A DNA stretch of 64,000 nt, from contig CAMTWI010000002.1 of NCBI GenBank assembly GCA_947085505.1, forward strand, positions 8,681 to 72,680, in the 5' to 3' direction. The stretch comes from an uncultured bacterium (GTDB lineage Bacteria; Patescibacteriota; Minisyncoccia; Phycocordibacterales; Phycocordibacteraceae). The notes beneath the pieces were generated by a model, which saw nothing but the letters and a program-made list of their open reading frames with translations, searched no databases and was not told the origin of the DNA. Made by a program: the position numbers and the translations under genes. Of this stretch, positions 7,891 to 34,777 are shown piece after piece; positions within the stretch are counted from its first letter, which is position 1; each line of letters starts with the position of its first letter.

Positions 7891-10800
7891 CTAGGGGGCA
7901 GGGACTGGTGCTGGTGGCTCAGGCTCAGGCGTTGTTTCAGGAGCAGGTTCAGGTGTTGGCTCTGGTTCAACAGGAGTCTCGCCTGGTGTTGGTTCTTCCG
8001 CGGCAGGTGTTGGCTCAGGTGCCAGTGTAGGTGCCGGAGCTACAGGATCAGGCTGTGTACGATCTATTACCTGGCACTCCCCTTCGCGAATTATCTGTGC
8101 ACCATTGCGGATAGAGAGACAGTACGGCTCTCCGGTAACTTCGTCATAGAACGTAATACCGGTTGGCTTCTCCCTGCTTCCAACCGTGAGGCGATCAACA
8201 ACTAGTTCAACGGCAGCAAGCATACCGTTACGAATGCTGAATTTGTTGAGGATCTCGGTGAACGCTGCGAAGTCTGGGAATGGTTGAGCCTCAGGACGCG
8301 CTGCAAGGATCGCAAGCTGTTCTTCGATAGAGGAGAGGCGCTCCATGATAAGGTCGGTGCGACGAAGCGATTCTTCTCCAGCACGAATGGCAAAGCTCGC
8401 CATCTTGTACAGGTCAGCCTTGCCACCTGTGTAGACTTCTTCAGACAAGGTCTCCGTTGTTTGTGCAAGGAACGATTCTGCGGTCACTGAGCCTGTCGAA
8501 AGGATACTCGCCGCAGTAAGGGCGTCACTGAGTGTTACTGCACCAGAAACAGTGAGCTTCCCGGCAACCGCAGCGTCACTCGACACTTTAAGAGAGTATG
8601 CTAGAGCATTCTCTGCTACTGGCGCAAGAGCGAGTGTACGGGTGTCGAGCTCCTTGATAGCGTTCACGGATGCAGCAAGGATGGCCGTGGTGCTGATCTG
8701 CTTGTAGCCGTTCGCTCCTTCGTTCATCGCCTCAGGGATGTTCGCGCCTACGTTCTGAGCGATGAATCCAGAGTACTGAATGCCGCCGTCAAAGTATGGG
8801 GTGCCCTCCTTCCAAATGTAGGTCTGAGGATTGATACCGCGAAGTCCACTGAGTCCTGTGGTGAAAGCGCCTTGGGTGTTCTTGAGGTTCTCGTCCGAGG
8901 TACAGCTCATGAGACCTGAACCGTTGGTCTGGACACCGGCACAGGAGACGAGGTTTGCGACTGAGATGTTACCATCAGCAGCAACGCGCATACGTTCCGC
9001 GTTGTTGGTTATGACAGACAAGTTGGTGTTGCTTACTGTACCAAAAGAACTCGTACTTCCACCGCTATACAGCGTTAAGTGTCTCGTTCCATTGGTGAGC
9101 AAGTCTATAACACCACCATTTGTGGCGTGATTAATCGCCAACGTTGTGTAGCCAGAATACGCAGCAGGACTTGCAGTGCCAATACCAACGTTACCCGAAG
9201 CACCCAAGAATATTGCGTCTGCATTACTTGTATTGCCGATACTTAGGCTACCACTGCCAGTTGTGATACCAATGTAACCGTTACCATTCGATGAGGCCTC
9301 GAGACGAAGTTTATTGGTGTCGTTGTAGTTAGCATAGATGCCCGCACTGCTTGCCGTACGCTTCACCTCAAGCGCACTGCCTGGATTCGTCGTGCCGATA
9401 CCGACGTTTCCAGAAGAAGGCGGCATGATAATGAGGTTGTTTGATGACGTAGTGAACAGTTTTGTTGCCTGTGTCTGATTATCAAGATTAGTAGAATCAA
9501 AATTGTTTCCAACAAAGAGCGGTCCGTTGTTAACTCTCTTCAGAGTCACATGATCCATTTGTGTTACGGCGTCACTTGACGCAGTGTAGTTCATGAGTAC
9601 GAGCACCCGAACATACTTCGTACCAACCGGGAAATTAGGAAAGCTTGTTCCTTCGCCATGGGTGGTTGCCGAGTACTTATGCCACTGACCGTCAGCAGGT
9701 AATGTCATCCCTGCCGCGGCAAAGTAACAGTACGTGCCGCACGGTGCCGAAGTAATAGCAACCTTGTTAGCATCGTAGGCGATGTACCCGAAATAAATGA
9801 TTCCAGGACTTGCGCCCGCAACACTCTTCTTAAACCATCCTTCGAGCTGTAGTACATCGGTCACAGGGTTAACCGGGATATAGTCAGCACTTTCTACCTG
9901 TGAGTAACCTGTTGTTTGTGATGTGTAGTTCCCTGAATACCCGCCCGTTGTAACCGTAGTTAGTCCGGTCCACCCAGTAGTGCTATTGGTTTCAAAGTCT
10001 CCGTTCACGAGCAGATTGTCATTCGTGATGTCGTGGTATCCATTGATGTTAATCGCAGTGTTTGTGTATACCGTACGGAACCGGTTATCTGCACTACCCA
10101 AGTCATACGTATTATTTGTCTCAGGTCCAACATTCCCGGCAACTTGGAGTTTAAATACTGCAGGGTTTGTGGTGCCAATACCAATCCTGCCATCAGCCAG
10201 CACTGTCAGATGCGGAACGAATGTGGTTGAGCCGTTAAGGCTACTGTCGCTTGCGCTACCGATCTGATATTTGCGACCAGGATCACCAGTAAAACCAAAC
10301 GATACAACGTGATGTGGGTAACTGTTAATAAGATAAGAACCTTCAATCACATCATTATGAAGAAAGCCCGTATAATTCAGCGCAGTTGCGGAACCTGAGC
10401 CGCGTACCTTCATAAAGCCGCCACTAGAACCGAGATCGAGCCTAGCCTTTGGTTCTGAAGTACCAATACCAACATTACCTGATGTATCAAAAGTCATACG
10501 TACCGTTCCATTTGAAGCGAGCTGCAGTGCTGTTGCGTTTGATGAACCTAGTAGCGAGGAATAGGCTAGACTTCCAGCGAATATCTGTCCCGCGCTTGAT
10601 CCTTCAACTCCCCACCAGAGAGACCCGGTGGTATTTGATATAGACGCGTAATTGAATCCTGTCGTTGAGCCGCCTATATCAAGCGAGCGCGTGGGTGTAG
10701 CTGCAGCATTCGCTATGGTTAGTTTGTGTGTGGGATTCGTAGTGCCGATACCGACGTTGCCGTTTGAGTTAAGAATCGTCATCCTATCTGAGAATGAGAT

Positions 10801-13800
10801 TGTATTTCCTGCGCTTCCAGCTACAGCAGTCCTGAATTTTATGTTTCCACCAGCAAAATCCATAGCTGCAGCCGTATCGTTCCTGTCGTACAGATAGCTA
10901 TCGCCTGTTGAGGTAAAGCGGATGCCGTCTCCAATCAGCGGGTATCCAGACCCTGAACTACCAAGAGTAGCCAAACCTATCCTAGCGCCTCCCCAGCCAG
11001 CGCTAGGGGCACTCACTTGAAGATTGTAGTTGGCAGTATCCGTGGTACCAATACTCACGTTGCCGTTAGAGGCAAACGTGGTCGATGTGGTTGTGCCACC
11101 AACCTTAATAGTTAAAGCGCCATTTCCACCAACAATCTGTGATTGCCAGCCTTGGTCAACGAAGTCGATTGTGTTGGTTGTACCGACGCTATTATACAGA
11201 CGCAACTTATCAGTAGAGTCGCTTTCGATGCGCAGACGATACGAGCCAGGATCAGCCGTACCAATACCGACATTACCTGCATTTGTTATCTTCAATCGAG
11301 TTGTAGGTAGGTAATTAACTCCAACTGTTAATCCAGTGTCGGTGAGCAATTCTATTGATCCATCCTGTTTTAATTGAATACCTGAAGCCGAAGCTTGTGA
11401 CGGCGTATAATAATGGCTTGTGGCATAGAATGCATTATTGTAAACATATGAGCCCACAGAACTTTCTACGCTTCCTAAATTCAGAGTTTGAGAGCCAGTA
11501 GCACCTCCTTGAAGAGCCATTTGCCTGTAGCCAGAATTTACTACTGAAAGTGATGTTGCGGGAGTCGTCGTACCAATACCGACGTTGCCGCTGGCGTTTA
11601 AGAGTAGTCCCGGATTACCTCCTACCGCTAATACAGCCCCAGCATGGCCCCTTAATACTGCATATTGCTCATTATTATCCGGAGCAAACAATAAAGCGCT
11701 TCCGCTACCAAGGTAAAGCGGAGTACTCGGATTGCCAAATGCTAGATAGCTAGCGGATGTCGAAAGCTTTATGTTTCCAGAAACCTCTAGCTTTTCCCCG
11801 GGACTCGCAGTACCAATACCGACGTTGCCTCCATTCGGATTAAGTGCCAGATTACCAACGGTCGTACCTCCAACCGTGAGGTTCTCAATTATTCCATATG
11901 TATCTCCGCTCGTGGCCCCATGGCGAAGACGAATTGCTGAACCCGCAGAACCTGCAGAATATGTATTCGTAGTTACATTCAAACCACCCAGAGACACGTC
12001 ACCGGTAACTTGCAATGGGACTGAAGGGTTTGTCGTACCAATACCAATATTCCCTGAGTTCGCTACATACAGTGCATTATTTACCCCACCCGTTGAGATA
12101 CTGAGGACTCCAGATGCGGGGCTCTCTATCCTTGAGAAGTTGCTGTTGTCAGCATTATAGAACCTGAACGAACCACCATTGAGTACGGAACCGTTGCCAG
12201 CAATACTAAATGTGGTGAGAGGGTTCGTCGTCCCAATACCAACAGTTCCTTCTCCACCAGAATTGAGGGTTATGGGAGCACCCTGAAGACGGAGCTCCGT
12301 GAATGAGGAAGCGCTACGGTTTATCGCTATTATCCGGCCAGCACCTGAGCCAGAAGGATCGTAAGCGACCTCTAAGCCCGTACCTGAAGACGGGATGGTG
12401 TAGTTGAGGAAACGTGCTGCGCCATTCACATCCAATCTCGTCTCAGGGGTGGTTGTACCAATACCAACGTTACCTGTTTCGGTAATACTCATACGCTCAA
12501 GAAGACTGCCCGACTGCGCCCGCGTACTGAAATGAAGTGTTCCGTCTTCTGAGCTAGCTCCTCGCTTAAATGCGATCTTAGCGGCGAGCTGTGACGGCGT
12601 ATACCCATTTACGAAACCAATGTAGTTCGTCTCTCCATATGCAGCACCATCCTTTCCGTAGAAGATAAGATTGTTATTGTTGAGGAAATTAGTATCACCG
12701 ATGTGTACATCACCTCCCATGACCGTAAGTCTCGCTGTTGGTGTTATTGTGCCAATACCGACGTTGCCACCAAAGTATGACTGTGCTGTTCCACCAGAAT
12801 AAATGGCCCAGGTATTCGAAGCAGCGTTCATTCCAATCTGAACACCCATGTTGTACGTTGCGTTACTGCCTCCAAAATAACCACCGACGCTATAGTCACC
12901 GGCACCAATTGCAGTTGCGTAGACACCGAAGTTGCTACTAGTAGCTCTATAGTTATTGAACCGTCCAGCGATTTGAGTGGAACCGTCATCAACCGTGAAC
13001 TTGTAGCCAGGATTCGTGTTACCAATACCGACGTTGCCACTATTGTCTACGACAAAAGCTTTATTCGTGAAGATAGACCCCCCTGCGACTGTTGACGGAG
13101 TAATTTCGAAAAGGTTTGCAGAACTCTGACCAATACGGAAGTTCACCCCACCTGAGTATCCAAGGAAGTCCATGTACGCCCCATTATTATTCGACGCGTC
13201 ACCGAGACGAATATTTCCACCCACAACATGGAGCCTTTCAGCAGGGGTTGTAGTACCAATACCGACATTACCACCACTCGGATTAAGGAGAAGAGATTTC
13301 ACACCCACACCTGCCTGGGAGGACTGGAGGTAACTTGCGTCTATAGCTGAATCATAGCCAACGAAGAGTGACTTAGTAGGTGTTGTTGCATTACTTACCA
13401 TAAGTCCTGCACCGACGTCACTTGAGTATGTAGCGTTGTGTGCAACCTGCAGTTTCGCATTCGGGGTGGTTGTACCAATACCGACGTTGCCTGCATTAGT
13501 AATTGTAAGACGGTTAGTACCTGCCGTTTGAAGATTTATACCGTACCCCTCATTGTTTAGGGTCGTAAATCCTGTTGATCCATCATAGAGCTGAAGAGTG
13601 CTAAATGAGGCTGAAGTACCGCCTCCCGCATACCCAAGACCAGAGCCAATTAATGACGTTGGTGAGATACCGATACTGCCCATAACATCGAGCTTGCTAG
13701 TTGGGGTGGTCGTACCAATACCGACGTTACCACCCAAGAAATTGAACCTCGTTGATACGAATTCGAGAGGGATGTTCTCACTTACCGCGTCATTGAATGC

Positions 13801-16800
13801 TTCGATGCGAGCTCCCGAAGTTGCATCAGATCTCAATGAAATATTTTGATCAGTATTAACACGAACCTGAAGCGCACCTGAGTATGCTACCGGCACTGCC
13901 CCGATACCAACCTGGCCATTAGTATTAACAAGAAGAACGCGCTGATTCGTGCTCGTCGCTATCTGGAATAGATTCTGTCCTGTTGTACCGTTCACAACCA
14001 AGTTGGCAGCTGGAGTGGTGGTACCAATTCCCACGTTACCCGTAGAGGTGATGATCATGCGCTCATTAGCTGCAGCGACACCTCCTGTAAAGAAACGGAG
14101 ATTTGCTGCTGCATTCACTGCTGCGAGATCAAGACCCCCAGAACTACTGCCCCAGACGTAATTCCTGTTTGCAACATCAGCACCGCCTGACCCAACATAG
14201 TTCGCTCCCGTAGCACCAAGCCAGGTGTTTCCCGCGCTTGTCTTTACCGAGTATTCTGCGTATGCTCCCGAGCCTGTATTTTCGTTTGTGAGCAATGCTT
14301 GAGCGATGCCGTTGTTATTCTTATCTATATGGAGGGCACCAAGCGGGGTGCTGGTACCAACACCAACGTTGCCGTTTGAAGAAAGGAACAGGTGCGGAGC
14401 GCTGTCATACAGTGAGAAGGCTACTCCACCTGCAGTACTTCCTCCCTGACGGAATCGAAGCACGTTTGAAACTCCTTCATAGAGAGCATCGTGTCGGAGA
14501 TCAAGTCCATAGAGCATATTCGAAGTACCGCCATAGAATGCATGAACGCCTCTCGTAATTACGTTACCAGCAACATCGAGAGTCGACTGTGGCGTAGAGG
14601 TACCAATACCGACATTATTTCCGAGCGGATTAAGTGCTAGCGGCCGTGAGCCAAAACTCTGTAACTGTGCAAAAGTGCTTTCCTGACTAAGCACAACTGA
14701 CGCACCAATGGGACTCGTGTACGCTCCTGAAACTTCCAGCGCTCCCCCACTTACATGAAGTTTGTTGTTAGGCGCTGTAATGCCAATACCGACGTTGCCA
14801 CTCGTATCAATCGTAAGACGAGTTGCACCTCCTGTCTCAAACGCAAGATTGTTGCTGTCGTTGGTACCAAGTACCGCTGTTGCACCAAAGGAGTTCCCTC
14901 CTTGGCGGAAGAAGGTATCGTCCAGTGTATTGAGATCTGCCAAAAGTGTATTGGCACTCCAGGAGAGTCCAGAGCCAGCCGTAATACGAGTAGAAGGAGT
15001 GTCGTAGAAGGTGTTCCAGTTGGTAGTGGAGGCCGTAAGGGGGATGGTGTAGCCAGCGGTGAGGCTGAAGGCGCCCGTACCAGAAGTGTACGTGAGACCC
15101 GTTGCACTTGAGGAGAAGAGACCGCGGGCGGTTGTAGCGAAGTCTGAGATGGTATTCGCGAGTTGGGTACCTGAATGGTTGTCGCGGCTCTGGTACCAGG
15201 TGCCTTCTTGGCCGTCGAAGGTGCCGGTCCACGCACCGGTGCGGTCTAGCGTGAGAGCGCCTGCGGTATTGAGGAGTCCTGAGCCAAGAAGTGAGGTGAA
15301 GGTGTTGCTGCCAAGGCCGAAGTTTGTGGTTGTTGCGTTGGTTGCGATAAGGTCGCCGAAGGTCTGCAGCGGACCCCACGTGTTTGCGGTTGTGGTACCA
15401 AACGCAAGAGAGATGGCGTTTGTGGAGCGTACGAGCGGATAGTCAAAAGTGAGGGGGTTTTCGTAATCGATACCGGCAGTTGCTGCAGAGAGAACACCGG
15501 AGGTTGCTTTAACTAATCCGTTTGAAAGACCAGAGAACGTGATGGTGCCAGCAGACGTTAGGGACGAAAGCGTACCAACGCTCGTAAGTGAAGACGCAAG
15601 GATGTTAGAGGCGAGTGTTACTCCGGTTAGGGTGCCCGCAGGAGCGATAACCGGTACGGTGCCGGCTGCCGTAACAAGACCCTTGCCGTTAACGGTGAAC
15701 GTTGGAATGGCTGTCGAGGAACCGAACGAGCCGGTGTTTGCGTTAACGGTTGCAAGTGTTGCGGAAGCAGAACCAGGACCTGAGGCGGTTATGTCTCCGG
15801 TGAGGGCGGTTATGTAATTCCCTGCTGCTTGGTAGTCGGTACCGGCAACCGCTGACGTAACAACACCTGCCGTTGCCTTCAGAAGTCCGGTGAGTGAGGC
15901 AACGCGGGTCTCTCCTGAGATGTAGAGGTTGGTGGTTGTTGCGTTGGTTGCAACAAGGTCGCCGAAGGTTTGGAGCGGACCCCACGTGTTTGCGGTTGTG
16001 GTACCGAAGGCTAGAGAGAGGACGTTGGACGAGAACTGGAGCGGATACGATACGGACGCTATGCGCGAGGTGTACGCAGTATTCCATTCAGTTGTTGAAG
16101 CCGTTAACGGGATGGTGTATCCAGCAGTAAGGCTGAGAGCGCCGGTGCCTGAGGTGTATGTGAGCCCGGTTGCGGAACTAGAGAAGAGACCGCGAGCGCT
16201 TGCAGCGAAGTCTGAGATGGTTGAGGCGAGCTGGGTGCCGGTGTGGTTTGCGCGGGCGAGGTAGTATGTGCCTTCCTGTCCGTCGAACAAGCCTGTCCAG
16301 TTGCCGGTTACGTCTTGGACATAGTCGGTCCCCGCAAGCGCAGCAACAATAGTCCCTGCTGCGTTTGTTTTGAGGAGCGAGGACGCAATGCTTGAGATTG
16401 CGAAGTTTGTGGTTGTTGCGTTGCTGGCAGTTAGGTTCGCGAAGATGCTCGTTCCGGTGAAGGTTGGTGATGCATTGAATACCAGCGAACCAGTGCCAGT
16501 CTCGTCCGTAACAATGGCTGCGAGCTCGCTTGAAGTATCTATAGATGCATTCGTGAGATAGCCGGCTGATGCATGGTTGCCCCAATCAAAGGCGGTGTTC
16601 CAGTTTGTTGTTGAGGCCGTTAACGGGATGGTGTAGCCAGCAGTAAGGCTGAGGGCGCCGGTGCCTGAGGTGTATGTGAGGCCGGTTGCGGAACTTGAGA
16701 AGAGGCCGCGAGCTGTTGTGGTGAAGTCTGAAATGGTTGAAGCAAGTTGTGTGCCGGTGTGGTTTGCGCGGGCGAGGTATGCAGATCCTTCGATGCCGTC

Positions 16801-18861: not shown

Positions 18862-18997
18862 GAAAGAGCGTGGAATATCTATATATTATCTAGAGATTCC
18901 ATTCACTCCTACACTATGACTGTTGACAAGAAACTCACTCGATAAGCAGTCAAACTTCCGCGAGTTGCTTCACTCACACTCTCTTCTCAAGCAGGTC

Positions 18998-19037
18998 TCT
19001 TGCACAGAATGGTCCCACACAAACAAGTAGTGCAAGA
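18998..19037. promoter_or_regulatory. inverted repeat TCTTGCAC-N24-GTGCAAGA upstream of giant gene 1
   Basis: Perfect 8-bp arms at 18998-19005 and 19030-19037. A related TCTTGC/GCAAGA repeat lies upstream of giant gene 2. Confidence 0.3.
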
Positions 19038-19364: not shown

Positions 19365-19389
19365 AAAAGCTTTTATATAAAAGGCTTTT
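19365..19389 (-). terminator. AT-rich hairpin just downstream of giant gene 2 (possible terminator)
   Basis: aaaagctttta-tat-aaaaggctttt, 5 nt after the stop codon. The stem is AU-rich, so it is weak. Confidence 0.3.
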
Positions 19390-19393
19390 GCGT

Positions 19394-28300: not shown

Positions 28301-31300
28301 CCCTGTTTGCAGAATTATATTGTTAGCTACGCCTGCAAGCTCCGCATATATCGCTGGAGTGGACGCGCTTCCAACAACCTGTAACTTTCCAAGAGAAGGT
28401 GTTGCTGTACCAATACCAACGTTGCCCGCAGAGGTGATGGTGAGAGAGGTAGCAGCGTTACCAAGACCAGCAGCTCCGTAATCGTTGGTGAGGTATAGGT
28501 TTGAATCATTTGGCTTGCTTCCAAGTATCACTGACGCGACACCGGCTTGATGTAACAGGAGTGAAGCCGTGGTACCTGTTGGTTCTGCACCATAGAACGT
28601 CGCCCCACCTACGTTGAAGCCCTGGAAGGTGCCCGCACGGATACGGCCATTTACATTGAGTCTTTCGTCGCCCACAAAGACCGTGGTGCCAATGCCGATA
28701 TTGCCTGCGCTGTTTATATACAATGCGGACGTAAAGGTGCGAGAACCTGAACCAGCAGATGCCTGCACATAGTTCAGGGAACCGCTTGCTCCAAGAATAA
28801 GCGCGGAACCTGTTTGTGCTGTGTTATCAAGTGTTCCCGCTGTAGCTGAGGTAAGAAGTGCGTTATTGGAAAGCACTGGGGTGTCACCTGAATACTGAAC
28901 GCCAAACCGGTGCTTCATTCCTGACCAACCGGACGGCTCAAGAATGTAATTAAGTGTTGAGCCTGTTGCTCCTGCAACATGCAGCAAACTTGAAGGAGAG
29001 GTGGTGCCAATACCGACGTTTCCTGAACCAAGAATCGTCACTTGAGCAACGTTGTTTGTGCCAAACGTTAAGGGGCCATTCTGAACGTTAACAATATGGG
29101 CACCATTCACCGCATGGTATCCACTAGGGGTTATTCCAGAACCGTTGAAGCCGACAACAAGACCGTATCCTGTAGTATTCGTTATGTTGAGCTGGTTCAT
29201 AACGGTGCTTCCTGAACCTATATTTGAATTGAACTCCGCGGTGTTCCCACGAATTCCGCCGTTACCTACAATATTCAAAGGAGATGAGGGGGATGTTGTA
29301 CCAATACCGACATTACCTAATGAATTTATAATCATCCGATCTCCACCGCTTGTAGAGAACAAGTACTCGCCACCGGCCGAACCTATGGCGAACTTAAATC
29401 TGTTACCGTTTACGGCATCGGAATTCGTTTCAGACGTGATATCAAGGTTGTAGTTATTATTGCCAACGAGCCTCTGAATCACACTTGATAGAGTGCTGTT
29501 AACCACTTCTAACTTCGCTCCTGGATTCGTAGTACCAATACCGATATTTCCTGATGTATCGATGGTCATGCGCGTAGCATTGTTGGTCTCAAACGCGAGG
29601 TTGTTACTGTCGTTAGTACCAAGCACCGCAGTTGCACCAAACGAGTTCCCTCCTTGGCGGAAGAAGTCAGTAGCGAGATCGCTGTAGTTAACTGTGAGGG
29701 CGCCACCAATATTTGAGAGGCCGGTACCAAGAAGACTTGTGAAGAGGTTGCTGTTGAGGGTGAAGTTCGTGGTTGTGAAATTTGTTGTTGTCGCGCTCGT
29801 GAAGACACTATTCGCAGAGAAGACCGGCATATTGAACTCGAAGCGGTCCAGGGTGCTGTTCCAGGTCAAGAGCGCGTGTGGCGAAGCACTTCCACGATTG
29901 AAGATAAGGGTACTGTCTTCAGTGTCTGCGGTTGCGTTGTCTGCGTTTAGCGTGAACGAGCTTGAGACTGTGCCTGCAATTGAGGTTGAAGCAGCTGAGA
30001 GATTGTTAACCGTGAGCTCGTCTATATACCCGCGGCGCCAATAGCTTCCTGTTGATCCAAAGTCGTAGGTGTTGTTCGTGGTTGGAATCAGGCTTGAGCT
30101 AATCGTGCTGTTAACCGTAAGGAGATCAGCGGCACTGGTTCCCAACGTTGTGTTTCTGCCAACCGCGATGTTCCCTGAGAACGCAGAGGTAGCGGTTGTT
30201 GAAGTGGCGAGAATGTACGGGCCTGCGACGTACTGACCGCCCTCGATAAAGGTTGCTTGAATACCACCTCCAAACGTGGACGTAGCGCCGTTACTTGCGA
30301 TGGTGGTTGGCTGCGAGCTTCCAATCACGATTGTTGAAGGGAGCGACAGCGTTACACCCCCTATGCCGTTATCCGTTACCGTGAGCTGATTCAACGTTCC
30401 GGTAACCCATGAGGAGAGACTAGTTGAGGTTGCAACCCCATTTGCACCTACTGACAGGAGTCGGGACGGGGTGACATAGGTGAGAGCGAATGCGTTCGTT
30501 GAGGTTGCGTTGGTAAGCGTTGAGTTCGTTGCCGTGAGGTTTGTGATAATTGCGGTCGTTATGTTCGCAAGCGGTGAGGTAAGCGCATCAATGACGGCGG
30601 TCGTGAACCGTGCACCCGTGGCAAAGAGATTTGTTGATGTTGCGTTTGTAGCTGTAAGGTTGGTTGCAAAGAGATTCGTTGATGTAGCATTTGTCGATGT
30701 CGCGTTCGTAAATACCGCGTCAGTAGCCGTAAGGTTCGCAATCACTGCCGTTGTGATGTTCGCAAGTGTCGCCGTGAGGTTTGTGAAGAATCCGTCAAAG
30801 ATGGTGGCTAGTGTTGCGTAGAACGTTGTTGACGTTGCGTTCGTAATTGTCGCGTTCGTCCCAAGAAGATTCTCAACAGTGCCGTTCGTCGTGAACAGGT
30901 TAGTCGAAGTTGCATTCGTACTGGTTGCGTTTGTGAACACCGCGTCAGTTGCCGTGAGGTTTGTGATAACCGCATTCGTAATGGTTGCAAGTGTCGCCGT
31001 GAGGTTTGTGAAGAATCCGTCGACAACACTCGCAACTGCCGCATAGAAGTTTGTCGTGGTTGCGTTTGTAATTGTCGCGTTCTCGCCGAGAAGGTTGGTG
31101 AAGGATGCGTTCGTAGCAAAAAGATTTGTTGACGTTGCGTTCGTGCTCGTTGAGCTTGTTGAGACAATGCCATTCGCTACGATATCTCCGTTAACAGTTA
31201 GCGAACCTGTGATAGTCGTAGATGCGACATTGAGAGAAGAGCCGGTAATCGATCCCCCAGTGAAAGTTGAGTTGGTAATCGCACCGTCCTCAAATGTTGA

Positions 31301-33181
31301 ATCACTAATTCTGGTGTCGACGATACTACTGTTCATTATCTCGCCAGAGAACGTGTAGTTATTTGAAACATCTTCAATTCGGTTATAAAGCGTGCGACGA
31401 AGGAAATCGAAGCGCTCGTCGACATAGGACTGTGGTACCCCACCGTATGTCACCGTTGGGTATTCGTTACGCACGATGGTCACCGGTCCGGTATAGACTG
31501 TCGTGTTTCCTTTCACTGCCTCTTCCGTACCAGTAGTGCCACTCGGTACAGGGAATGAACTTGGATCGTTTGGAATAACGGCAAGTCCAACTTCTTCTGA
31601 TGCACCGAAGAAGCCAGCGAGCGGACCGAAGATTCCATGGAAGGCGCTTCCCACTGCGTGCGCAAAAACCGCTGTTACGTTTCGTAGGAACTCGGGAACG
31701 AATCGATCAATATCAAAAGAAGCCAGTGGCGACGCTGAGAGCATGCTGGTATCAACCGACTCGATACGAAGTGCAATACCTCCTACAACCCCGAGAGTCT
31801 TGTCAGTAGCGACTAAAGGCACTGATTCGATAGCAAGCACTGCATGTGCTACCCCGTTCTCAATACTTCTAACAGCCAACCTTGCTCGCTCTACTGACTG
31901 GACTACGGCTCGGTCTTGGGCTTCTAGAAGACCCCAAACAGTTCTGTCAGCTTCTTTTCCAAAGGCAAATGAGCCCTCAGAGATCATCAATCCTGCAGAT
32001 ACTGACTCTTCTACGAAGGCTAGTACGCTCTCTTCATAGACAACCGGTGCAGACTGTACGCCCATAGCCACCGTGCCGCCAATATAGTTCCCAATCCCAT
32101 ATACCGTACCGGTAATGGCACCCGGTATCACATCAATATTCTCGACATATGCATAGACCGCACGCTCATACGAAGACAGTACTGCAGAAGACGCTGTCAC
32201 AAATACGTTTCCAATAGCCAATGGTGTCCGTACTGCGATATCTCTCGTATTCAAGCTAACTGACACCAAGCCGTTCGCTGCCGCTTCAACTCCACGCAGG
32301 TGAAGAGCAAGGACTGTTTGAATATCGTTGAGTGCGTTCACACCAAGTCGGTTGTATGCGAGCATCGCCTCACGTGCAGTTGTTGCAAGTATTTCTTCGG
32401 GGTGAGTTGCAGCATGAGTGATTCCTGCAACGATTTGTGTAAACGTGAGAGGCTCAGGATACGTTTCAAAAATTTCTCTTGCGTGTACGTTCGCGAGCTT
32501 AGTCATCTCTACTGGCTCATGCGAATTCTTCATAGCTTCACCCAAGGTCAGGGGTAGCGTTGCCACTCGTGTGTCTGTCGCACGAACAAGTGCTATCTCT
32601 ATCTTTTTTATTTCATCTTCAGCAATTCTAGAAAATTCCGCAGTCTTCTCTACTGCGAGTGAATTCGAGGTATAGACAGCAGCAATAGCGAGTGCACGAA
32701 CTTCAAATGCTGAAGCGAGGATCATCTCACCTGCGCGTGCCACAACTCCACTGCCTGCGAGTGTTACACTCGCGCCAAGTACGAATGCAGTAAGTCCTGC
32801 GGCAAATGCGCGACCACTCATAACCGGCATAGAACGTGGTATGCGTACGGAAGAAAATGCTCCGAGCATCGACTGTGTTGCTACACGCATCCTATTTTCA
32901 AGATCATTCGCTACTCCAGAAACCTGGGTAACAGGACTATTTGCTTTACGATACTCAAGCTCTCTCTCGCGAGCAAGATTCTCAGCAAGTTCAATTTTTC
33001 TATCTAATTGAGTCTCCATGAAAACCTCAAGTGAGGCTCTCTCAATCAGCCACGTGCGGCCAACTTGTGAGCTTGCAATTTTCTTCTCACGACAAAGTCG
33101 CGACAAGTAGTCAGCGTTGTATCCGGAAAGTGCAGAGGCCTCTTTCGTTGAGATTAAATTTTTCTGGAGGAGAGAGTTCAA
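19394..33181 (-). CDS. giant membrane-anchored fibre protein (4,595 aa): HTH, TM, helical region, pentapeptide-like N/T array, about 33 GNVGIG modules, S74 chaperone domain, Ig-like domain
   Basis: One uninterrupted ORF of 13,788 nt. The only start-like codon after the upstream in-frame TAA that keeps the HTH domain is TTG at 33179-33181. The next Met is residue 55. Confidence 0.85.
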   Translation of the reverse strand: MNSLLQKNLISTKEASALSGYNADYLSRLCREKKIASSQVGRTWLIERASLEVFMETQLDRKIELAENLARERELEYRKANSPVTQVSGVANDLENRMRVATQSMLGAFSSVRIPRSMPVMSGRAFAAGLTAFVLGASVTLAGSGVVARAGEMILASAFEVRALAIAAVYTSNSLAVEKTAEFSRIAEDEIKKIEIALVRATDTRVATLPLTLGEAMKNSHEPVEMTKLANVHAREIFETYPEPLTFTQIVAGITHAATHPEEILATTAREAMLAYNRLGVNALNDIQTVLALHLRGVEAAANGLVSVSLNTRDIAVRTPLAIGNVFVTASSAVLSSYERAVYAYVENIDVIPGAITGTVYGIGNYIGGTVAMGVQSAPVVYEESVLAFVEESVSAGLMISEGSFAFGKEADRTVWGLLEAQDRAVVQSVERARLAVRSIENGVAHAVLAIESVPLVATDKTLGVVGGIALRIESVDTSMLSASPLASFDIDRFVPEFLRNVTAVFAHAVGSAFHGIFGPLAGFFGASEEVGLAVIPNDPSSFPVPSGTTGTEEAVKGNTTVYTGPVTIVRNEYPTVTYGGVPQSYVDERFDFLRRTLYNRIEDVSNNYTFSGEIMNSSIVDTRISDSTFEDGAITNSTFTGGSITGSSLNVASTTITGSLTVNGDIVANGIVSTSSTSTNATSTNLFATNASFTNLLGENATITNATTTNFYAAVASVVDGFFTNLTATLATITNAVITNLTATDAVFTNATSTNATSTNLFTTNGTVENLLGTNATITNATSTTFYATLATIFDGFFTNLTATLANITTAVIANLTATDAVFTNATSTNATSTNLFATNLTATNATSTNLFATGARFTTAVIDALTSPLANITTAIITNLTATNSTLTNATSTNAFALTYVTPSRLLSVGANGVATSTSLSSWVTGTLNQLTVTDNGIGGVTLSLPSTIVIGSSQPTTIASNGATSTFGGGIQATFIEGGQYVAGPYILATSTTATSAFSGNIAVGRNTTLGTSAADLLTVNSTISSSLIPTTNNTYDFGSTGSYWRRGYIDELTVNNLSAASTSIAGTVSSSFTLNADNATADTEDSTLIFNRGSASPHALLTWNSTLDRFEFNMPVFSANSVFTSATTTNFTTTNFTLNSNLFTSLLGTGLSNIGGALTVNYSDLATDFFRQGGNSFGATAVLGTNDSNNLAFETNNATRMTIDTSGNIGIGTTNPGAKLEVVNSTLSSVIQRLVGNNNYNLDITSETNSDAVNGNRFKFAIGSAGGEYLFSTSGGDRMIINSLGNVGIGTTSPSSPLNIVGNGGIRGNTAEFNSNIGSGSTVMNQLNITNTTGYGLVVGFNGSGITPSGYHAVNGAHIVNVQNGPLTFGTNNVAQVTILGSGNVGIGTTSPSSLLHVAGATGSTLNYILEPSGWSGMKHRFGVQYSGDTPVLSNNALLTSATAGTLDNTAQTGSALILGASGSLNYVQASAGSGSRTFTSALYINSAGNIGIGTTVFVGDERLNVNGRIRAGTFQGFNVGGATFYGAEPTGTTASLLLHQAGVASVILGSKPNDSNLYLTNDYGAAGLGNAATSLTITSAGNVGIGTATPSLGKLQVVGSASTPAIYAELAGVANNIILQTGVTGGNGTFGWKLMQDELTTGDLFLKRRLSSVDSDVMYFQRATGNVGIGTTGPTTKLHVATNGVAQAQIQNTSGTTKNAQLLFTDNGGTGWRIGSDVSTNNNTDNFQIYKDSLAAAVLTINSSGNVGIGTTTPADKLDVFGGVLITGNDARLRLQRTTGPNYVDFNSSNQFRVRSIALNDTGDTYPFTIDTTGYVGINTTSPLARMHIIGGNNTSLTLDRTASPAAQRFRMFVGDGTGGTIADENYIVSANTGLHFWGGGSGTTEYVTFRDNGNVGIGNTNPIYVGLGVNTNPVLSVLGPIQGGSATRSAAALGATTAFFDVNGWWGMRAGTDNSFNIDVYNAANPIAALTVLQDGNVGIGTANAPSRLTVAGNIETTNGADRSLILRSSTNYNYELRAAGDHFQILEAGDAAKVRFHISYPNGNVGIGTTAPGSRLHVSGGGMIVNTVGGVGTSIGRHINLGSVASPTDWRPYSGSTTGAIQMENSATEGFLLVATQGAAVPRTQFITTGGFEINVGATIGGGAGTSAIHILSSGNVGIGNSAPTGKLTVADAGSVTPNLIIERTIGGADALRLTTTFSGGNAVALNPFITGADNGGFEITLAGTQRLVITPAGNVSIGGTSAAEKLSVTGNILSSNLAGSGNRCVYADLNGVLRVSSGDCGLASATGDNLGNHIATQNIQLNGNWLSGDGGSEGIFVNAAGNVGLGDTTPDAKLEILQGSDTSAQGLQITRSNDTDYTRLYMAAGLGSLSDPLIFNTAFAGDVAAIGRDGSAYFAGNVGVGTTNPAGRLHASTLNDGAESIPLYLSNSANTTGTSVSLGFNAHSTNSLLTGKISNLIVGPDNYHLAFYTYGGGLTEKMRITQTGNVGIGTATPAHKLTVTGGHLAVESGGVYVASGNLMSFNYGVDNAYYVAKVGSNLSLNTGGAFTFMGGNVGIGTTSPSYLLTNVSGTAPSGAATDAFYWSTTQNDWAAVISNRAAAGGAYGLRLHSEGVASTDFPLMISSGTSPGTVRVAVTGEGNVGIGTTSPGALLQVGSAAARGFRVYGNNSPYGVALAGDTGGWAYGYNFEGNAGAALGGFQAFGDNNTLSSYYVGTYANQRITILSGGNVGIGTTDPGSALEVKRTASNAGIYANYNDTNKIRFEAASNGNSYFGITTGSGSLSIGNTNNADAIFLTSSGRVGIGTTGPDELLHVGKTGSDAVIKVSASVAGAYFVADSATTGFYGLQLRAASTPKWMIGDYSGGSNLQFIQGTITNTPKMTLDTNGNLGIGSLSPGLKLEVVSGVVPAYDAYTRAGAAVFVSPTVNATNSGTAPNAAENVLTLVRPGVTGDVYPSVAELRIAKTTTGIQASTRLDFRLLDTGASTFGTPLSLLSNGNVGIGTTEPEGKFHVLGGTAGTVTAHGNANLGVFEGNGSNGISILVPNGSLSKIQFGSPADNIGGLIQYQQSTKTMRIGAGSDTAGGITQLIYDQGQVGFTLSAAGNVGIGTTTPVGKLSVTGGGTGTGINFQTANSSNSPLFTIQDNGNVTVGAGSAISTVIKFGVKLATNQHVAMYNNGGQTTLAGLNDAGSLAGLRIEGSNLALGGAGGTTHLTISSTGNVGIGTSDTGFGKLTILQNTNGPLRLWMRNEDAGSSATAGIVFNASGNSWQVGMGSAANNSNALAFIVDVSGTPTERMRITTGGFVGIGTVNPGAKLEVANGNIRLSGTGDAYIDSVDMSATKRRGLSFSDNAATTFNLYAGGNSTYNSNTEGTTKFFFRTSGGGSIEKWIFNSAGAGDLMEIAAGGFTNGYARVFGRLYVDGNVGIGSTAPLGKLHVLTTAETAPNSISAFDARHTVFGPTTSDGLAFSKGTAGSAYISSIRPGVAWDPLAIQASTFAFNPGGGSSAFFITNSSNVGIGTVSPTAPLHVVYPFAKTDTTERAGLEISSNDGSGWFGLKIRGIGAASQANRTFTLQTHESGSSNSGNITLQPYGGRVGIGETNPGSKLTVVVNTGDGDGINVTNASNSSYVSLFVMGSTGHSISNWANSTVLEAVPASTGGLVLSSYTGKITFQTSNRSNRMTILENGNVGIGTTNPLAQLAVGGTQAGNAGFEIVPGSGIVAQAYNRTGGAYASLNFDGSTIGFRPGGSTAMFIAGTGNVGIGMTDPAYQLEVGKTTGGVIAISTAGNAGSNASPLPATLNFLGYGDVVKGAISVQDRTGNFLGGWMKLQTADSSDVLQDRIFIDRDGNVGIGTTNPTHRLEVVNVTGAVGTNTIVGSFTKATTNGGGSASIRLTSDGYSTDIQTNSGGTGPFTYGTFVDTNIVNNFTDASGPYGNINFVTNGAVKMTITGGNASGNVGIGTASPGARLHVLGSDTLPVYVATSDANASYVRFFTGSTVSRGGFGYNTAGAVFLNAALSTANMVILNGGNVGIGTADASRRLTVVNDGSTNLVSSFQFGASGAITTVGADATQGRIQAYTNAYGSSATLLLNPDGGSVALPGTVSCTGLQTNGSGVISCASDENLKDIQGVFTTGLSGLRGINPQTYTWKEGTDYFDGGIQYSGFIAQNVGANIPEAMNEGVNGIKQISTTAILAASVNAIKELDIRTLALAPAAQNQAAHSLAVSTDASIAGKLTVTGIGTFSNSLTAASVFTQGSVTAVAFLTNSAVTLPSEVLTNGSADLFKMASYAITSMQALSERTDLLAVRIDEVETRLALLEASSATEQVSGAVGLTLATLKSMLQTLGIYLENGIAQFETLVFRQLAVAKDTNGDSSAGSQTILAGNTVVEVQNPYVLPTSKIFVTFTGPIQGAWYLSNKEAGKFRVTLAQGQSADVSFDYFILQTEGQLASPGAAGKTQTQSEPTPSPSTEPLPPVFPGEGTSTTTPVVSSGDTTPPSITLNGPAAREIDQGATWIDLGATASDETDGDLTASIQVQGTVDTSTPGTYTVTYSVSDAAGNQAHVSRIVSVKAVAAPAPEPTSTPEPAPAP
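19454..19687 (-). other. DUF5011-type bacterial Ig-like domain near the C-terminus of giant protein 2 (aa 4499-4576)
   Basis: DTTPPSITLNGPAAREIDQGATWIDLGATASDETDGDLTASIQVQGTVDTSTPGTYTVTYSVSDAAGNQAHVSRIVSV matches the D.t.P.i.l.G...G..y.d.G..A.D..DGdlt...v.g.vd...pGtYtvtY.v.D.aGN pattern. Confidence 0.7.
20534..20806 (-). other. peptidase S74-like intramolecular chaperone domain of giant protein 2 (aa 4126-4216)
   Basis: C-A-SDENLKDIQG...GLRGINPQTYTWKE...YSGFIAQNVGANIPEAMNEG...ISTTAILAASVNAIKELD. The Ser4127 codon is at 20801-20803. Confidence 0.75.
20852..29668 (-). repeat. array of about 33 degenerate GNVGIGTTxP-initiated modules (giant protein 2, aa 1172-4110)
   Basis: The 20-mer gtaccaataccgacgttgcc recurs exactly at 21279-21298 and 23490-23509, and on the 27911-27940 and 28151-28180 lines. 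Many one- or two-mismatch copies also occur. Confidence 0.85.
30482..31156 (-). repeat. Asn/Thr-rich 5-residue-periodic array (pentapeptide-repeat-like) with two copies of a roughly 75-aa unit (giant protein 2, aa 676-900)
   Basis: STNAT STNLF ATNAS FTNLL GENAT ITNAT TTNFY... has Asn every fifth residue over long stretches. About 22 N-x-S/T sequons by hand count. Confidence 0.7.
32738..32812 (-). other. predicted TM anchor of giant protein 2 (aa 124-148)
   Basis: AFAAGLTAFVLGASVTLAGSGVVA is preceded by RIPRSMPVMSGR. Confidence 0.6.
33008..33181 (-). other. N-terminal excisionase/MerR-type HTH domain of giant protein 2 (aa 1-58)
   Basis: LISTKEASALSGYNADYLSRLCREKKIASSQVGRTWLIERASLEVFM aligns with the N-termini of the proteins starting at 18861 and 34703. 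Confidence 0.65.
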
Positions 33182-33260
33182 GGTGCAGTAGGTCGGATAT
33201 CCGAATTAACTACATTTTAGCTTGTTATTTAGCATTTACTGCATACTCATTTGTGGATAG

Positions 33261-33303
33261 TCTTGCACACACGTTTAGCAATTTATCGATCGCAATCGCA
33301 AGA
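33261..33303. promoter_or_regulatory. inverted repeat TCTTGC-N31-GCAAGA upstream of giant gene 2
   Basis: Arms at 33261-33266 and 33298-33303. It shares the 9-mer tcttgcaca with the repeat at 18998. Confidence 0.25.
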
Positions 33304-33665
33304 ATTTATTTAAAACAAAAAAATCAAAAAAACTTAGATAGAATTTTGATGTGACCGCAAATATTTCATGTCCAAGGTGTCTTAGTTAGCCCGCAAGGAA
33401 CCACACCTCAACAAAAAGCTTAAACCTTACTGAATCTATACATTAATTAAGAACATAGGGTCGGCAATCCGTAATAGTTAATACTTACCTATTAAGTCGG
33501 ATCGAAAGTGCGACAGTCTACGGCCTTAACGTATCCTATATATAGGTATAGTTGAGAATAATTGCAGATAAAGAGGTATTTTCACCAGTTAAATGCATTT
33601 ACAACCTAAATAAAGTAAATACTGCTTTATTCCTCTCTGTAGTAGTAATGCTCCTTAATATAGTC

Positions 33666-33691
33666 ATAAAGCCCTCATTTGAGGGCTTTAT
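33666..33691 (-). terminator. perfect 11-bp hairpin downstream of the 301-aa HTH-TM gene
   Basis: ataaagccctc-attt-gagggctttat lies about 105 nt after the stop at 33798. Only a weak T-tract follows on the minus strand. Confidence 0.45.
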
Positions 33692-33797
33692 CTTAAACAT
33701 TGTGTCTAAAGTAAGTAGTTTTGTTTGATGTCAGCGAGTCAGACTATCTCAGATCTTATAATTGTATCTTGTATATACGAGACGAGATATTGTTATT

Positions 33798-34703
33798 TTA
33801 TAAGCTACTTTTATAGGTACTCTTTCCTCCGAGAAAGTCTATTATGGACTTTTGAACTCCGTAGTCCAGACTCGTTCCAGAAAGAAGTCGTTCTGCATTC
33901 CCTGTTCCTATCAGAGCTACGAGCATTGCAGCAACGGATACGACGATGAGAATTGCACGAACAACGACACTGCTCGATGACTTCGTCTCAGCTACTACTG
34001 CTTTAGTTAATGGCTTTTGTGCTCGTTGGATAACCGGCTGCTCTGGGTAGACTTCCTCATATTCCTTGCGAGGAGTATTCGCTGTTGCATACGATCGATG
34101 TAGCTCAACTCTTTCTTCTTTTGGGATTGTCTCTTCTGCGGCTTTTGCTAGTTCTGGCTCAGGATTCCGAATTCGTGAGATAGCGACTACTTCTTCTTGG
34201 TCAGGGCTGTGGGTCACCGATACCTCCTGAGCCTCTAAAACAGCCTCAGGAGCGGTTTCGGGCACGATTACAGGTAGATACTCATCCTTAAAATCATCTG
34301 TGCCGTCAGGTAACGTTGCCTGTGGAGTCTTTTTTTCATCAAACCACTCTCTCCACGCAGACTGCATGTCAGCGATTGCCGGAGATCCAACGGTTTCTGC
34401 TGGCTTCCTGCTGAATTCAGGCACTAAAACAGGCGTTTCAGCCACATATTGAGGTTTCTGCCATGTAGAGACCCTATCAGTAGCTGGTTCTGCCTGTTCA
34501 ACTACTGGTTCGACATCATCTTCTTTTCCAAATCTATGCTCTCTGATAGCTGAGTCTAGTACGTACCAATTACGACCAACTAGACGAGCCTCCACCCTCC
34601 CTTCTCGACAAAGCTGACCGACATAGTCTTTCGCATAACCAGTAATTTTTGCCGCCTGCTTTGACGAGATGTAAGTCTTGTCACCAATAGTTATCTCATC
34701 CAT
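33798..34703 (-). CDS. HTH-domain protein with acidic linker and C-terminal TM anchor (short paralog of the giant-protein N-terminal module)
   Basis: 301 aa. The N-terminus YISSKQAAKITGYAKDYVGQLCREGRVEARLVGRNWYVLDSAI aligns with both giant proteins. A TM helix VVVRAILIVVSVAAMLVALIGTG spans aa 246-268 (33900-33968). Confidence 0.75.
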   Translation of the reverse strand: MDEITIGDKTYISSKQAAKITGYAKDYVGQLCREGRVEARLVGRNWYVLDSAIREHRFGKEDDVEPVVEQAEPATDRVSTWQKPQYVAETPVLVPEFSRKPAETVGSPAIADMQSAWREWFDEKKTPQATLPDGTDDFKDEYLPVIVPETAPEAVLEAQEVSVTHSPDQEEVVAISRIRNPEPELAKAAEETIPKEERVELHRSYATANTPRKEYEEVYPEQPVIQRAQKPLTKAVVAETKSSSSVVVRAILIVVSVAAMLVALIGTGNAERLLSGTSLDYGVQKSIIDFLGGKSTYKSSL

Positions 34704-34715: not shown

Positions 34716-34777
34716 ATACTTTCTTGCCTCGTTTCAGATAGGTTATGAACACCTGTATGTCGAGCTCGATTTTCAGA

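Follow-up and report, generated by a model that had tools for sequence, protein, structure and literature searches.

Predicted giant tail-fibre-like proteins with a membrane anchor and a cytoplasmic winged helix-turn-helix domain at a conserved chromosomal locus of Paceibacteria

Why would a bacterium join a polypeptide of the phage tail-fibre type, several thousand residues long, to a small DNA-binding-type domain, and what could such a protein do at a fixed place in the chromosome? The question is raised by a 64,000-nucleotide stretch of contig CAMTWI010000002.1 (assembly GCA_947085505.1; hereafter the window) from an uncultured bacterium of the Phycocordibacteraceae (Patescibacteriota), in which three consecutive genes on the minus strand, here named A, B and C, lie between gatB and gap. 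Together they occupy 26,813 nt, i.e., 41.9% of the window (Table 1). A first-pass annotation, made from the nucleotide sequence without database searches, had described them as three proteins with a helix-turn-helix (HTH) domain and a transmembrane (TM) anchor, two of them giant surface fibres; the coordinates it gave and the share of the window (42%) are exact, and the translations of the open reading frames (ORFs) confirm that those of B and C run without any interruption. The order proposed for both giants, i.e., HTH, basic stretch, TM helix, repeats, GNVGIGT modules, peptidase S74 domain and extra C-terminal parts, is likewise correct. Each of the three proteins indeed has an HTH and one TM helix, but that of A sits near the C-terminus. 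We consider it very probable that B and C are single-pass proteins, with the N-terminus inside and the C-terminus outside the cell (N-in/C-out), in which HTH, TM helix, fibre and S74 domain follow each other in this order.

The fibre part, which makes up the remaining ~3,200-4,000 residues, is built from GNVGIGT-type modules at a spacing of 65-120 aa; a strict regular expression counts 32 of them in B (aa 1211-4035) and 20 in C (aa 1355-3223), compared with the earlier estimates of about 33 and about 22. Searches of the PDB with phmmer matched aa 1487-1624 of C to Bd2133 (8ond, E 2.6e-11) and aa 1332-1392 to 8ojn (E 3.9e-7), and matched B to the same two structures (8ond, E 5e-8; 8ojn, E 3e-6), while the matches of the giants also include the Bdellovibrio fibre structures 8onb, 8onc and 8oml. 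Tail-fibre families of PHROG are matched by B at E 1e-71 and 9e-49 and by C at E 1.7e-30, so that the label “tail-fibre-like” is correct. The architecture had been regarded as not assignable to any described system. This does not apply to the fibre itself, which is of a known kind and homologous to the mosaic adhesive trimers (MATs) of Bdellovibrio and to tail fibres, but it stands for the fusion with an HTH and a TM helix: in the literature searched on MATs and on the Candidate Phyla Radiation (CPR)/Patescibacteria, we found no description of an HTH-TM-anchored fibre, of a partner such as A, of a fixed class-wide locus for them or of the conserved cis block discussed below, and these four are what is new relative to that literature.

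MATs are surface-displayed trimeric beta-helix fibres that recognise prey; they possess a signal peptide, an N-terminal domain of ~130 aa and variable tips, which are S74-terminated or of other kinds, one end being conserved and the other variable (Caulton et al., 2024; PMC10769870). The beta-rich N-terminal domain is present in all 21 Bdellovibrio MATs, and outside Bdellovibrio MATs of 417-1,915 aa have been listed for several predatory lineages, a list without Patescibacteria and without HTH or TM anchor (PMC10769870). B and C resemble these proteins in their homologous repeat modules (E 2.6e-11), in the S74 domain with its SDxxxK motif at the end of the fibre repeats, and in the combination of a conserved end with a mosaic distal end; moreover, both kinds are encoded by cells rather than phages, and by organisms that live on other cells. 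They differ in their anchorage, since, compared by description, the signal peptide and the N-terminal domain of MATs, which presumably binds an element of the surface, are replaced here by a cytoplasmic HTH and a TM anchor, to which B adds a predicted helical base. They further differ in length (3,656 and 4,595 aa, with relatives of up to 7,214 aa), in the 335-469 residues that extend from the S74 serine to the C-terminus, and in their occurrence in monoderm-like Patescibacteria. With phage tail fibres and tailspikes (endosialidase K1F, 3gw6; T5 pb1; PHROG 9942 and 18345) the giants share the fibre repeats and the autoproteolytic Ser-Lys chaperone of the S74 type, and trimeric folding from the C-terminus would be expected for both. 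Unlike tail fibres, however, they are not part of a virion, have no phage genes nearby, are anchored in the cell membrane, are far longer and carry domains after the chaperone. One source names a relative (P0032) a trimeric autotransporter adhesin, an identity that we rejected for B and C, which have no C-terminal beta-barrel anchor of the YadA type: neither gave a Pfam match to YadA_anchor or a related family, and the anchor is the N-terminal TM helix.

The S74 domain that had been proposed for both giants is present with an intact SDxxxK motif (SDENLK, at residue 4127 of B and 3322 of C), and both scores exceed the Pfam cut-off of 22 bits for PF13884. The S, D and K of this motif are invariant in an alignment of 46 sequences, and among 71 homologues of the C-terminal region of C, PF13884 is found in 69 and PF16403 in the other two. 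An AlphaFold2 (AF2) model of the S74 region of C, made with 46 homologues, reaches a predicted local distance difference test (pLDDT) score above 90 over aa ~3329-3414. In a Foldseek search the model was closest to the intramolecular chaperone auto-processing (ICA) domain of MyRF (7dc3, probability 1.0, E 2e-3), the match with endosialidase 3gw6 being weak (probability <=0.15). To our knowledge, MYRF, a eukaryotic membrane-bound transcription factor, is the only well-known type of protein that combines a DNA-binding domain (DBD), an S74/ICA domain for trimerisation and self-cleavage, and a TM helix, and in this combination B and C are alike. In MYRF, however, the order is DBD-ICA-TM, the first two lie on one side of the membrane and cleavage frees the DBD, which is Ndt80-like and unrelated to the HTH_17-like domain found here. 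With the order HTH-TM-fibre-S74 and cleavage outside the cell, processing cannot free the HTH, and a mechanism of the MYRF type is ruled out despite the match in fold. The chaperone is not at the end of the protein in either giant: counted from and including the catalytic serine, 469 residues of B and 335 of C follow (B 19394-20803, C 7891-8898). This part has helical segments and a Pro-rich tail, and in B also an Ig-like domain. Cleavage, if it takes place, would release a large piece with domains of its own to the outside of the cell.

Among the other domains that the first-pass annotation expected, DUF5011 is strongly supported in B, where the Ig-like domain also has sequence matches in the PDB (2kpn, 4hmc), whereas CBM_4_9 and Pentapeptide were not found in A, B or C at a Pfam threshold of E<=0.1. 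A match with Phage_T4_gp36 fell far under its cut-off and was not used, and the same holds for the identity of a weakly NTTRR-F1-like segment of C (aa 2948-3022), for which the NCBIfam match is far under the cut-off. Pro-rich C-terminal tails of the PEPAP type, like that of C, also occur in P0076, P0012, P0074, P0071 and P0157. Single blocks of modules can stand out clearly from their background: segment 2697-2814 of C shares 76% identity with P0012, where the background is 25-39%, and segment 3127-3304 shares 49.5% with B.

An AF2 model of aa 1-80 of B is a winged HTH (b-a-a-b-b followed by a long helix; pLDDT 87-90), for which Foldseek retrieved TraN, Xis of Pukovnik and the DNA complexes of RacA and BldC with probabilities of 0.96-1.0; the target-normalised TM-scores with Xis and BldC are 0.7-0.8 and the root-mean-square deviations 1.4-1.7 Å. 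With TraN of plasmid pIP501 the domain shares 34-35% identity over ~55 residues, and a profile of the HTH finds TraN at E 0.004. The excisionase-like HTH of the first-pass annotation agrees with this predicted fold of B. The HTH_17 profile remains just under the Pfam cut-off of 27 bits in all three proteins (20.2-25.7 bits at aa ~10-57), as does TIGR01764 under its own (21.3 vs. 28.8). The family members found with the profile of the window score 34-64 bits with HTH_17, above the cut-off. TraN (from an Enterococcus plasmid; 4p0z, 4pm3, 6g1t), the excisionases including Xis, BldC and RacA share the winged-HTH fold and bind double-stranded DNA, but they are soluble cytoplasmic proteins without a TM helix or an extracellular part; TraN has two HTHs in tandem, like most members of the HTH-TM family. 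Since all close structural relatives bind DNA, this is also the most probable function of the HTHs of A, B and C, and by this analogy we rate the chance that they bind DNA in the cytoplasm as about even.

A hydropathy scan yields one TM helix per protein, preceded in each case by an Arg/Lys-rich stretch. These assignments are based on hydropathy, on the positive-inside rule and on conservation of the position, a TM helix being predicted at aa ~100-160 in 72 of the 77 orthologues of B. Because a folded domain of 80 aa precedes it, the helix is not part of a cleavable signal peptide, and this domain together with the positive-inside rule points to an N-in/C-out topology. In topology alone the giants resemble ToxR, CadC, TcpP and RodZ, in which a cytoplasmic HTH at the N-terminus is likewise joined by a single TM helix to a C-terminal part outside the cytoplasm. 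The HTH of ToxR, CadC and TcpP is, however, of the OmpR/PhoB type, for which A, B and C gave no Pfam match (Trans_reg_C), and that of RodZ is of the XRE type and binds MreB, not DNA, whereas it is HTH_17-like here; furthermore, the outer domains of these four proteins are small periplasmic sensors or scaffolds, compared with a fibre of 3,000-4,000 aa in B and C.

The part of B that is most conserved among its orthologues is the HTH. The first ~650 residues, comprising the HTH, the TM helix and the predicted helical base, are recognisable in 35-48 of the 77 orthologues, the remainder in about 7-13. AF2 renders the base as all-helical at a pLDDT below 50; in the short-repeat region that follows it, the sequence TNATSTNLFAT occurs five times. 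The TTG start of B is supported by its alignment with the ATG starts of orthologues. Protein A has a different layout: an N-terminal winged HTH, an acidic and Pro-rich linker, a C-terminal TM helix and an external tail of ~30 aa, without a fibre. Its HTH is extremely conserved, with a median identity over 65 species of 80%, compared with 74% for SecA, 67% for GatB and 66% for Obg, and its consensus SSKRAAKITGYAKDYVGQLCREGRV.ARLVGRSWYV is near-invariant. The linker is variable apart from two short conserved motifs, TWExPxY (aa ~80-86) and MQxAWxEWF (aa ~113-121). In about 75 loci the gene immediately upstream of the giant encodes an orthologue of A (246-377 aa, with the HTH, the linker and the C-terminal TM helix), and A is a conserved partner of the giant, with its near-invariant HTH on a flexible tether of ~180 aa and a C-terminal membrane anchor.

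The N-terminal module belongs to a large family. A profile of 85 positions built from the N-termini of A, B and C was used in a HMMER search of 1.84 billion representative proteins and retrieved 8,250 clusters with a threshold of E<=1e-3, of which 2,443 also passed E<=1e-10; word-index searches with the N-termini returned just 2 and 6 relatives. Two tandem HTH copies are present in 135 of 151 sequences, and a hydrophobic helix after the HTH likewise in 135, in a sample made up of 149 of the 150 top-scoring hits listed plus P0001 and P0002, the ranking of which favours proteins with two HTHs. The typical listed member (P0003-P0151) has 300-400 aa, with two HTHs, a linker, one TM helix and a tail of ~50 aa; a minority of those listed reach giant size (1,900-7,214 aa) and contain GNVGIG repeats and S74. 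All members that carry a name are Candidatus Paceibacterota, and no relatives of the N-termini were found among the 2.9 million viral contigs of IMG/VR.

When one genome of each GTDB species was scanned, 247 loci were confirmed, and the counts that follow are for the best 80. These carry Patescibacteria-type labels (Paceibacterota, Parcubacteria, Kaiserbacteria, Minisyncoccia) or no phylum label; some are automatically labelled Saccharibacteria, and a few titles read just “bacterium” or “uncultured bacterium.” The assumption of a CPR-type cell is in keeping with this, the close relatives being labelled Candidatus Paceibacterota or Patescibacteria group. The small and the giant HTH-TM gene are preceded by gatB in 76 loci, by obg in 72 and by secA in 63, in the order secA-obg-gatB-small gene-giant gene, with giants of 1,617-7,214 aa and with GatB identities down to 54-60%. 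The synteny that the first-pass annotation proposed to check is therefore found in about 76 of these 80 species representatives, in which the giant takes the position orthologous to B; the same slot after gatB is occupied by a giant of 7,214 aa with two HTHs. Within the window no phage genes, integrase, reverse transcriptase or tRNA were found, and the flanks hold housekeeping and envelope genes only, as expected for the non-prophage context that had been assumed. Judged by its sequence context, the locus is core chromosomal and vertically inherited. The matches with S74 and the PHROG tail-fibre families could suggest that the locus is left over from a prophage or is a tail-fibre cassette gained by horizontal transfer, but given the cellular flanks, the chromosomal position shared by about 76 of 80 species and the absence of the N-terminal module from IMG/VR, such an origin of the whole locus is refuted, and we regard it as extremely improbable. 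An ancient exchange of fibre modules with phages is likely.

Genes of this size invite the suspicion that they are artefacts of assembly, with collapsed or chimeric repeats, and many homologues in public assemblies do end at contig ends, which indicates that the giant genes are hard to assemble. Nevertheless, B aligns colinearly with an independent protein of 4,524 aa (P0076; aa 18-4580 vs. 2-4494, 38% identity) in a single high-scoring segment pair, complete giants are present on contigs of 132 and 674 kb, the repeat copies have diverged in their DNA, and the domain order is unbroken from the HTH to S74. TRF detected no tandem DNA repeats. An artefact was rejected on these grounds (the diverged copies, the colinear orthologue and the complete giants on long contigs) and is, in our view, highly improbable.

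An alignment of 75 upstream regions shows that, in about 75 species, the final ~110 nt ahead of the giant gene have been conserved despite the strong divergence of the proteins. The block has the order cTTATCC(A/C)CAcA ... CCGAAATAACAAG-TAnAAT-TAGTTAA-TTCGGATATCCGAC-ATG, and no Shine-Dalgarno sequence was found in the aligned regions. In 74 loci TATCC[AC]CA is present in the interval -130..0 relative to the start of the giant gene. With one mismatch at most, the palindrome that adjoins the start is found there in at least 57 loci and is all but absent from the rest of the 1.15 Mb of locus sequence; it was not found upstream of C. The left half-site variants TTCGG[C/T]TATCCGA tend to be paired with GHSW/LARSG variants of the HTH of the giant and the perfect palindrome with a GR(T/S)W/LCRE HTH, but this pattern (L003-L081) follows phylogeny, and L077 is a counter-example. 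The gap equivalent to that between A and B has a median length of 600 nt (range 263-999) and a median GC content of 37% in 75 loci, and Rfam gave no family match in the A-B gap or anywhere in the window. The possibility that this AT-rich gap with its TTATCCACA-like box is oriC was rejected, as the gap contains a single box, the motif is not enriched in the window (8 copies compared with 11.5 expected), and the orientation of the genes is the same on both sides of the gap. The window holds an exact cTTATCCACACA box, with the same TTATCCACACA box as before the giant, at 41753-41761, upstream of a gene for a Lys/Ala-rich, histone-H1-like basic protein of 63 aa (41423-41614, minus strand) between murB and secA; in L083 a gene of 61 aa takes the position of this gene.

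How might such proteins work? The reading we prefer, and hold to be reasonably probable, is that B and C are Sec-inserted, N-in/C-out, trimeric, S74-matured host-binding fibres of a Patescibacterium of the class Paceibacteria. Considered by itself and by analogy with MATs, the role in adhesion or host recognition appears only slightly on the probable side; the first-pass annotation had likewise named attachment to host or prey, or contact sensing, as candidate roles. The hydrophobic helix would serve as an uncleaved signal-anchor for insertion by Sec and the signal recognition particle (SRP), and the extracellular part would then trimerise from its C-terminal end, guided by the intramolecular chaperone. 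As known from phage proteins and MATs, the chaperone may then remove itself by a cut at Ser4127 in B or Ser3322 in C. The result would be a membrane-fixed fibre with an exposed variable tip and a length of roughly 130-280 nm, extrapolated from MAT fibres at 0.4-0.7 Å per residue (Bd3182, 550 Å; Bd2133, ~145 Å for 370 aa; PMC10769870). Its variable distal part would recognise and hold the surface of a host or prey cell or a substratum, and the conserved base with a mosaic distal part seems to fit the adhesin logic of MATs. Several observations weigh against this reading, i.e., the HTH_17 scores below the Pfam cut-off in A, B and C, the pLDDT below 50 for all of B past aa 80, the net charge of only +1 to +3 of the HTH, and the TM helices of B and C, which are just moderately hydrophobic in the hydropathy scan. 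Trimerisation, export, cleavage and surface display are taken from homologues by analogy. Furthermore, S74 proteins of phages and MATs end soon after the chaperone, with which the long part after the serine, including the Ig-like domain of B, fits poorly, and a fibre that all species encode at one fixed locus might just as well form a structural coat of the surface.

Such a coat, acting as a glycocalyx, as a spacer or as protection from phages or grazers, with antigenic or phage pressure driving the variable part, would agree with the finding that nearly all species have one giant at an invariant core position, with the hypervariable distal parts and with the neighbouring genes for envelope polysaccharide. 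We nevertheless think it unlikely, as among characterised proteins the nearest relatives serve as adhesins and as receptor-binding fibres (PMC10769870), S74 maturation exposes a binding tip in known cases, and cultured relatives live attached to a host (PMC12281837). Compatible with an adhesin, but as an explanation also not likely, is a contact sensor or membrane-tethered regulator comparable to ToxR and CadC, in which engagement or loading of the fibre would alter the cytoplasmic HTHs of A, B and C, and these, possibly together with A, would bind the palindrome and the TTATCC box and adjust transcription of the giant gene. The layout, with a DNA-binding-type domain in the cytoplasm, one TM helix and an extracytoplasmic part, is what would be expected, and the locus-specific palindrome at the start codon, the HTH as the most conserved part of B, the HTH of A that is more conserved than SecA, and the half-site variants that tend to accompany the GHSW/LARSG variants of the HTH all point in this direction. 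The palindrome could, however, serve any other regulator, binding of the HTH at this site being an assumption; the association of half-sites and HTHs is confounded by phylogeny and contradicted by L077, and C has no palindrome upstream. Signalling down a fibre of 3,000-4,000 aa through a single TM helix is, moreover, without known precedent, and the ~50 residues that most family members have outside the membrane are too few for a sensor.

Another reading is a tether between DNA and membrane, as with RacA, which links the chromosome to the pole, or the HeH/LEM proteins of the eukaryotic inner nuclear membrane. The HTH-TM family would fasten the nucleoid to the membrane, and the giants would place DNA under the base of the fibre or the site of host contact. 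The size of the family at E<=1e-3 and the prevailing plan of two HTHs, linker, TM helix and ~50-aa tail among the top 150 listed speak for it, as do RacA-DNA among the best structural matches, TraN, the closest solved sequence relative, as a tandem-HTH binder of double-stranded DNA, and A as an HTH on a long flexible tether to the membrane. Yet the binding sites are hypothetical and the charge of the HTH is modest, while the extreme conservation of the HTH of A and its TWExPxY and MQxAWxEWF motifs suit a specific partner better than general binding of the nucleoid, so that we consider a tether rather improbable. A specific partner is central to another idea, namely that the HTH is a protein-protein module that docks the base of the fibre and A to a cytoskeletal, secretion, type IV secretion system (T4SS) or type IV pilus (T4P) component instead of DNA. 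RodZ has the same layout of HTH, TM helix and extracytoplasmic part; the HTH of A is conserved above housekeeping enzymes, as for an interface with a conserved protein; secA adjoins the locus in 63 of 80 loci, and the window has genes for pseudopilins and for a coupling protein of the T4SS. This is no less doubtful than a tether, because the close relatives in structure and sequence are all binders of double-stranded DNA, the residues R28, R31, G41, R42 and W44 of the wing and recognition helix are conserved, and the HTH of RodZ is of the XRE type, not HTH_17.

If the preferred reading of B and C as host-binding fibres is correct, the locus is a concrete candidate for host attachment in Paceibacteria, the largest class. 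How CPR/Patescibacteria find and hold their hosts is known mainly from Saccharibacteria, with type IV pili and some adhesins as the factors implicated. Here, a fibre that could equal the width of the cell in length is encoded at the same position in nearly every species, and a fixed locus with a variable distal end is the pattern expected of a determinant of host range. More tentatively, and with a probability that we put clearly on the low side, the locus may encode a class-wide and vertically inherited device of Paceibacteria in which a host-binding fibre and a DNA-binding domain in one polypeptide couple host contact directly to DNA. With A and the operator-like palindrome, this would allow transcription to be controlled by contact, or the chromosome to be held in place beneath the site of contact, an outside-in coupling that would be new in needing no kinase, sigma/anti-sigma pair or second messenger. 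The large and apparently Patescibacteria-specific family of membrane-tethered HTH proteins may also bear on the organisation or regulation of DNA in minimal cells. Both ideas are directly testable, given that the HTH domains are soluble and of small size, that there is a defined candidate site on the DNA, and that an organism of the class Paceibacteria is now kept in co-culture (PMC12281837).

Table 1. Features of the locus and its flanks, in the direction of transcription of genes A, B and C (positions are those of the window).
Feature	Position	Strand	Basis or remark
gatB	34831-36258		upstream of locus
Gene A	33798-34703	(-)	301 aa
A, HTH domain (aa 1-60)	34524-34703	(-)	HTH_17 20.2 bits
A, transmembrane helix (aa 245-268)	33900-33971	(-)	Kyte-Doolittle 2.84 in 19-residue window; position kept in orthologues
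A-B intergenic region	33182-33797	(-)	616 nt, AT-rich, B's own promoter region
TTATCC(A/C)CA box, DnaA-box-like, here CTATCCACA	33252-33260	(-)	about 75 nt upstream of B start
TAAAAT, -10-like hexamer (TAnAAT in orthologues)	33214-33219	(-)	conserved columns; promoter role inferred
Palindrome TTCGGATATCCGA	33193-33205	(-)	exact; 11 nt before TTG of B; abuts ATG in most orthologues
Gene B	19394-33181	(-)	4,595 aa, TTG start
B, winged HTH and conserved following helix (aa 1-85)	32927-33181	(-)	AF2, Foldseek
B, transmembrane signal-anchor (aa 125-148)	32738-32809	(-)	Kyte-Doolittle 1.79; Arg-rich stretch before
B, extracellular base (aa ~149-650), predicted helical	31232-32737	(-)	conserved in about 35-48/77 orthologues
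B, Thr/Asn/Ala-rich short-repeat region (aa ~651-1190)	29612-31231	(-)	composition T23 A12 N10
B, GNVGIGT modules, n=32 (aa ~1191-4110)	20852-29611	(-)	motif positions; Bd2133 8ond/8ojn and PHROG matches
B, Peptidase_S74/intramolecular chaperone start (aa 4127-4184), S4127-D-E-N-L-K	20630-20803	(-)	Pfam 29.4 bits
B, Bact_surface_Ig-like (DUF5011) (aa 4504-4575)	19457-19672	(-)	Pfam E 9.6e-23; C-terminal to S74 site; Pro-rich tail after
B-C intergenic region	18862-19393	(-)	532 nt, terminator-like hairpin at 19347-19360
Gene C	7891-18861	(-)	3,656 aa
C, HTH and helix (aa 1-85)	18607-18861	(-)	HTH_17 21.3 bits
C, transmembrane helix (aa 93-111)	18529-18585	(-)	Kyte-Doolittle 1.62; basic stretch KKSSRRSPTLSR before
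C, N-proximal region (aa 260-1320), ~85-aa unit x5	14902-18084	(-)	GYTIPLTASTT at aa 379, 532, 742, 914, 1270
C, GNVGIGT modules, n=20 (aa ~1321-3300)	8962-14901	(-)	regular expression; Bd2133 and PHROG matches
C, Peptidase_S74 start (aa 3322-3379), S3322-D-E-N-L-K	8725-8898	(-)	Pfam 25.4 bits
C, Pro/Glu/Thr-rich C-terminal tail, PEPTPEP type	7894-8079	(-)	translation
gap	6693-7739		downstream of locus

The three genes are set off from each other as the first-pass annotation had described, with long gaps (Table 1) and with hairpins after gatB (34787-34810), after A (palindromic, at about 33668-33690) and after B, where the hairpin is combined with a T-run; a promoter-like site of A is located at 34710-34737. 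It is plausible that A, B and C are separate transcription units.

Gene C is a diverged paralogue of B (27-41% identical), and its HTH departs from that of B at residues that are invariant among the orthologues of B (Y21V, D24G, G41D, R42A). The DNA copies of its ~85-aa unit are 67-85% identical. On a contig of 674.6 kb the synteny of the window from Wzy_C/murB to transketolase is retained with a single giant before gap, and L010 is similar; since relatives with a single giant run directly from the giant to gap (L010, L083), C is an added paralogue. A close relative, JAUPKX, also possesses C, cut by the contig end. Two or three consecutive HTH-TM genes, including giants with two HTHs, follow gatB in L017 (18566-20245) and L022 (6385-13912), which, together with C in the window, indicates that tandem expansion happened more than once.

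The remaining genes of the window are concerned with Mur functions, envelope polysaccharide (Wzy_C, flippase, glycosyltransferases) and the pentose-phosphate pathway, or encode pseudopilins and a T4SS coupling protein. The latter (56515-58212, minus strand) is of the VirD4/TrwB type (TrwB_AAD_bind, TraG-D_C). A preprint on the T4SS of Patescibacteria reported that PrgB-like adhesins were not detected in CPR, and it is a matter of speculation that the giant fibres are candidates for this missing contact function. An adjoining protein of 494 aa (55224-56708, minus strand) with a Lamin Tail Domain and PKD domains is probably secreted or exposed at the surface; its true start is probably further downstream, as the ORF called overlaps the adjoining gene by ~190 nt. 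Finally, the GC skew at positions 14000-18000, i.e., in the N-proximal repeats of C, is strongly positive (+0.12 to +0.23) compared with a negative background, which probably stems from the Thr/Ser/Gly/Ala-rich coding on the minus strand and not from replication.

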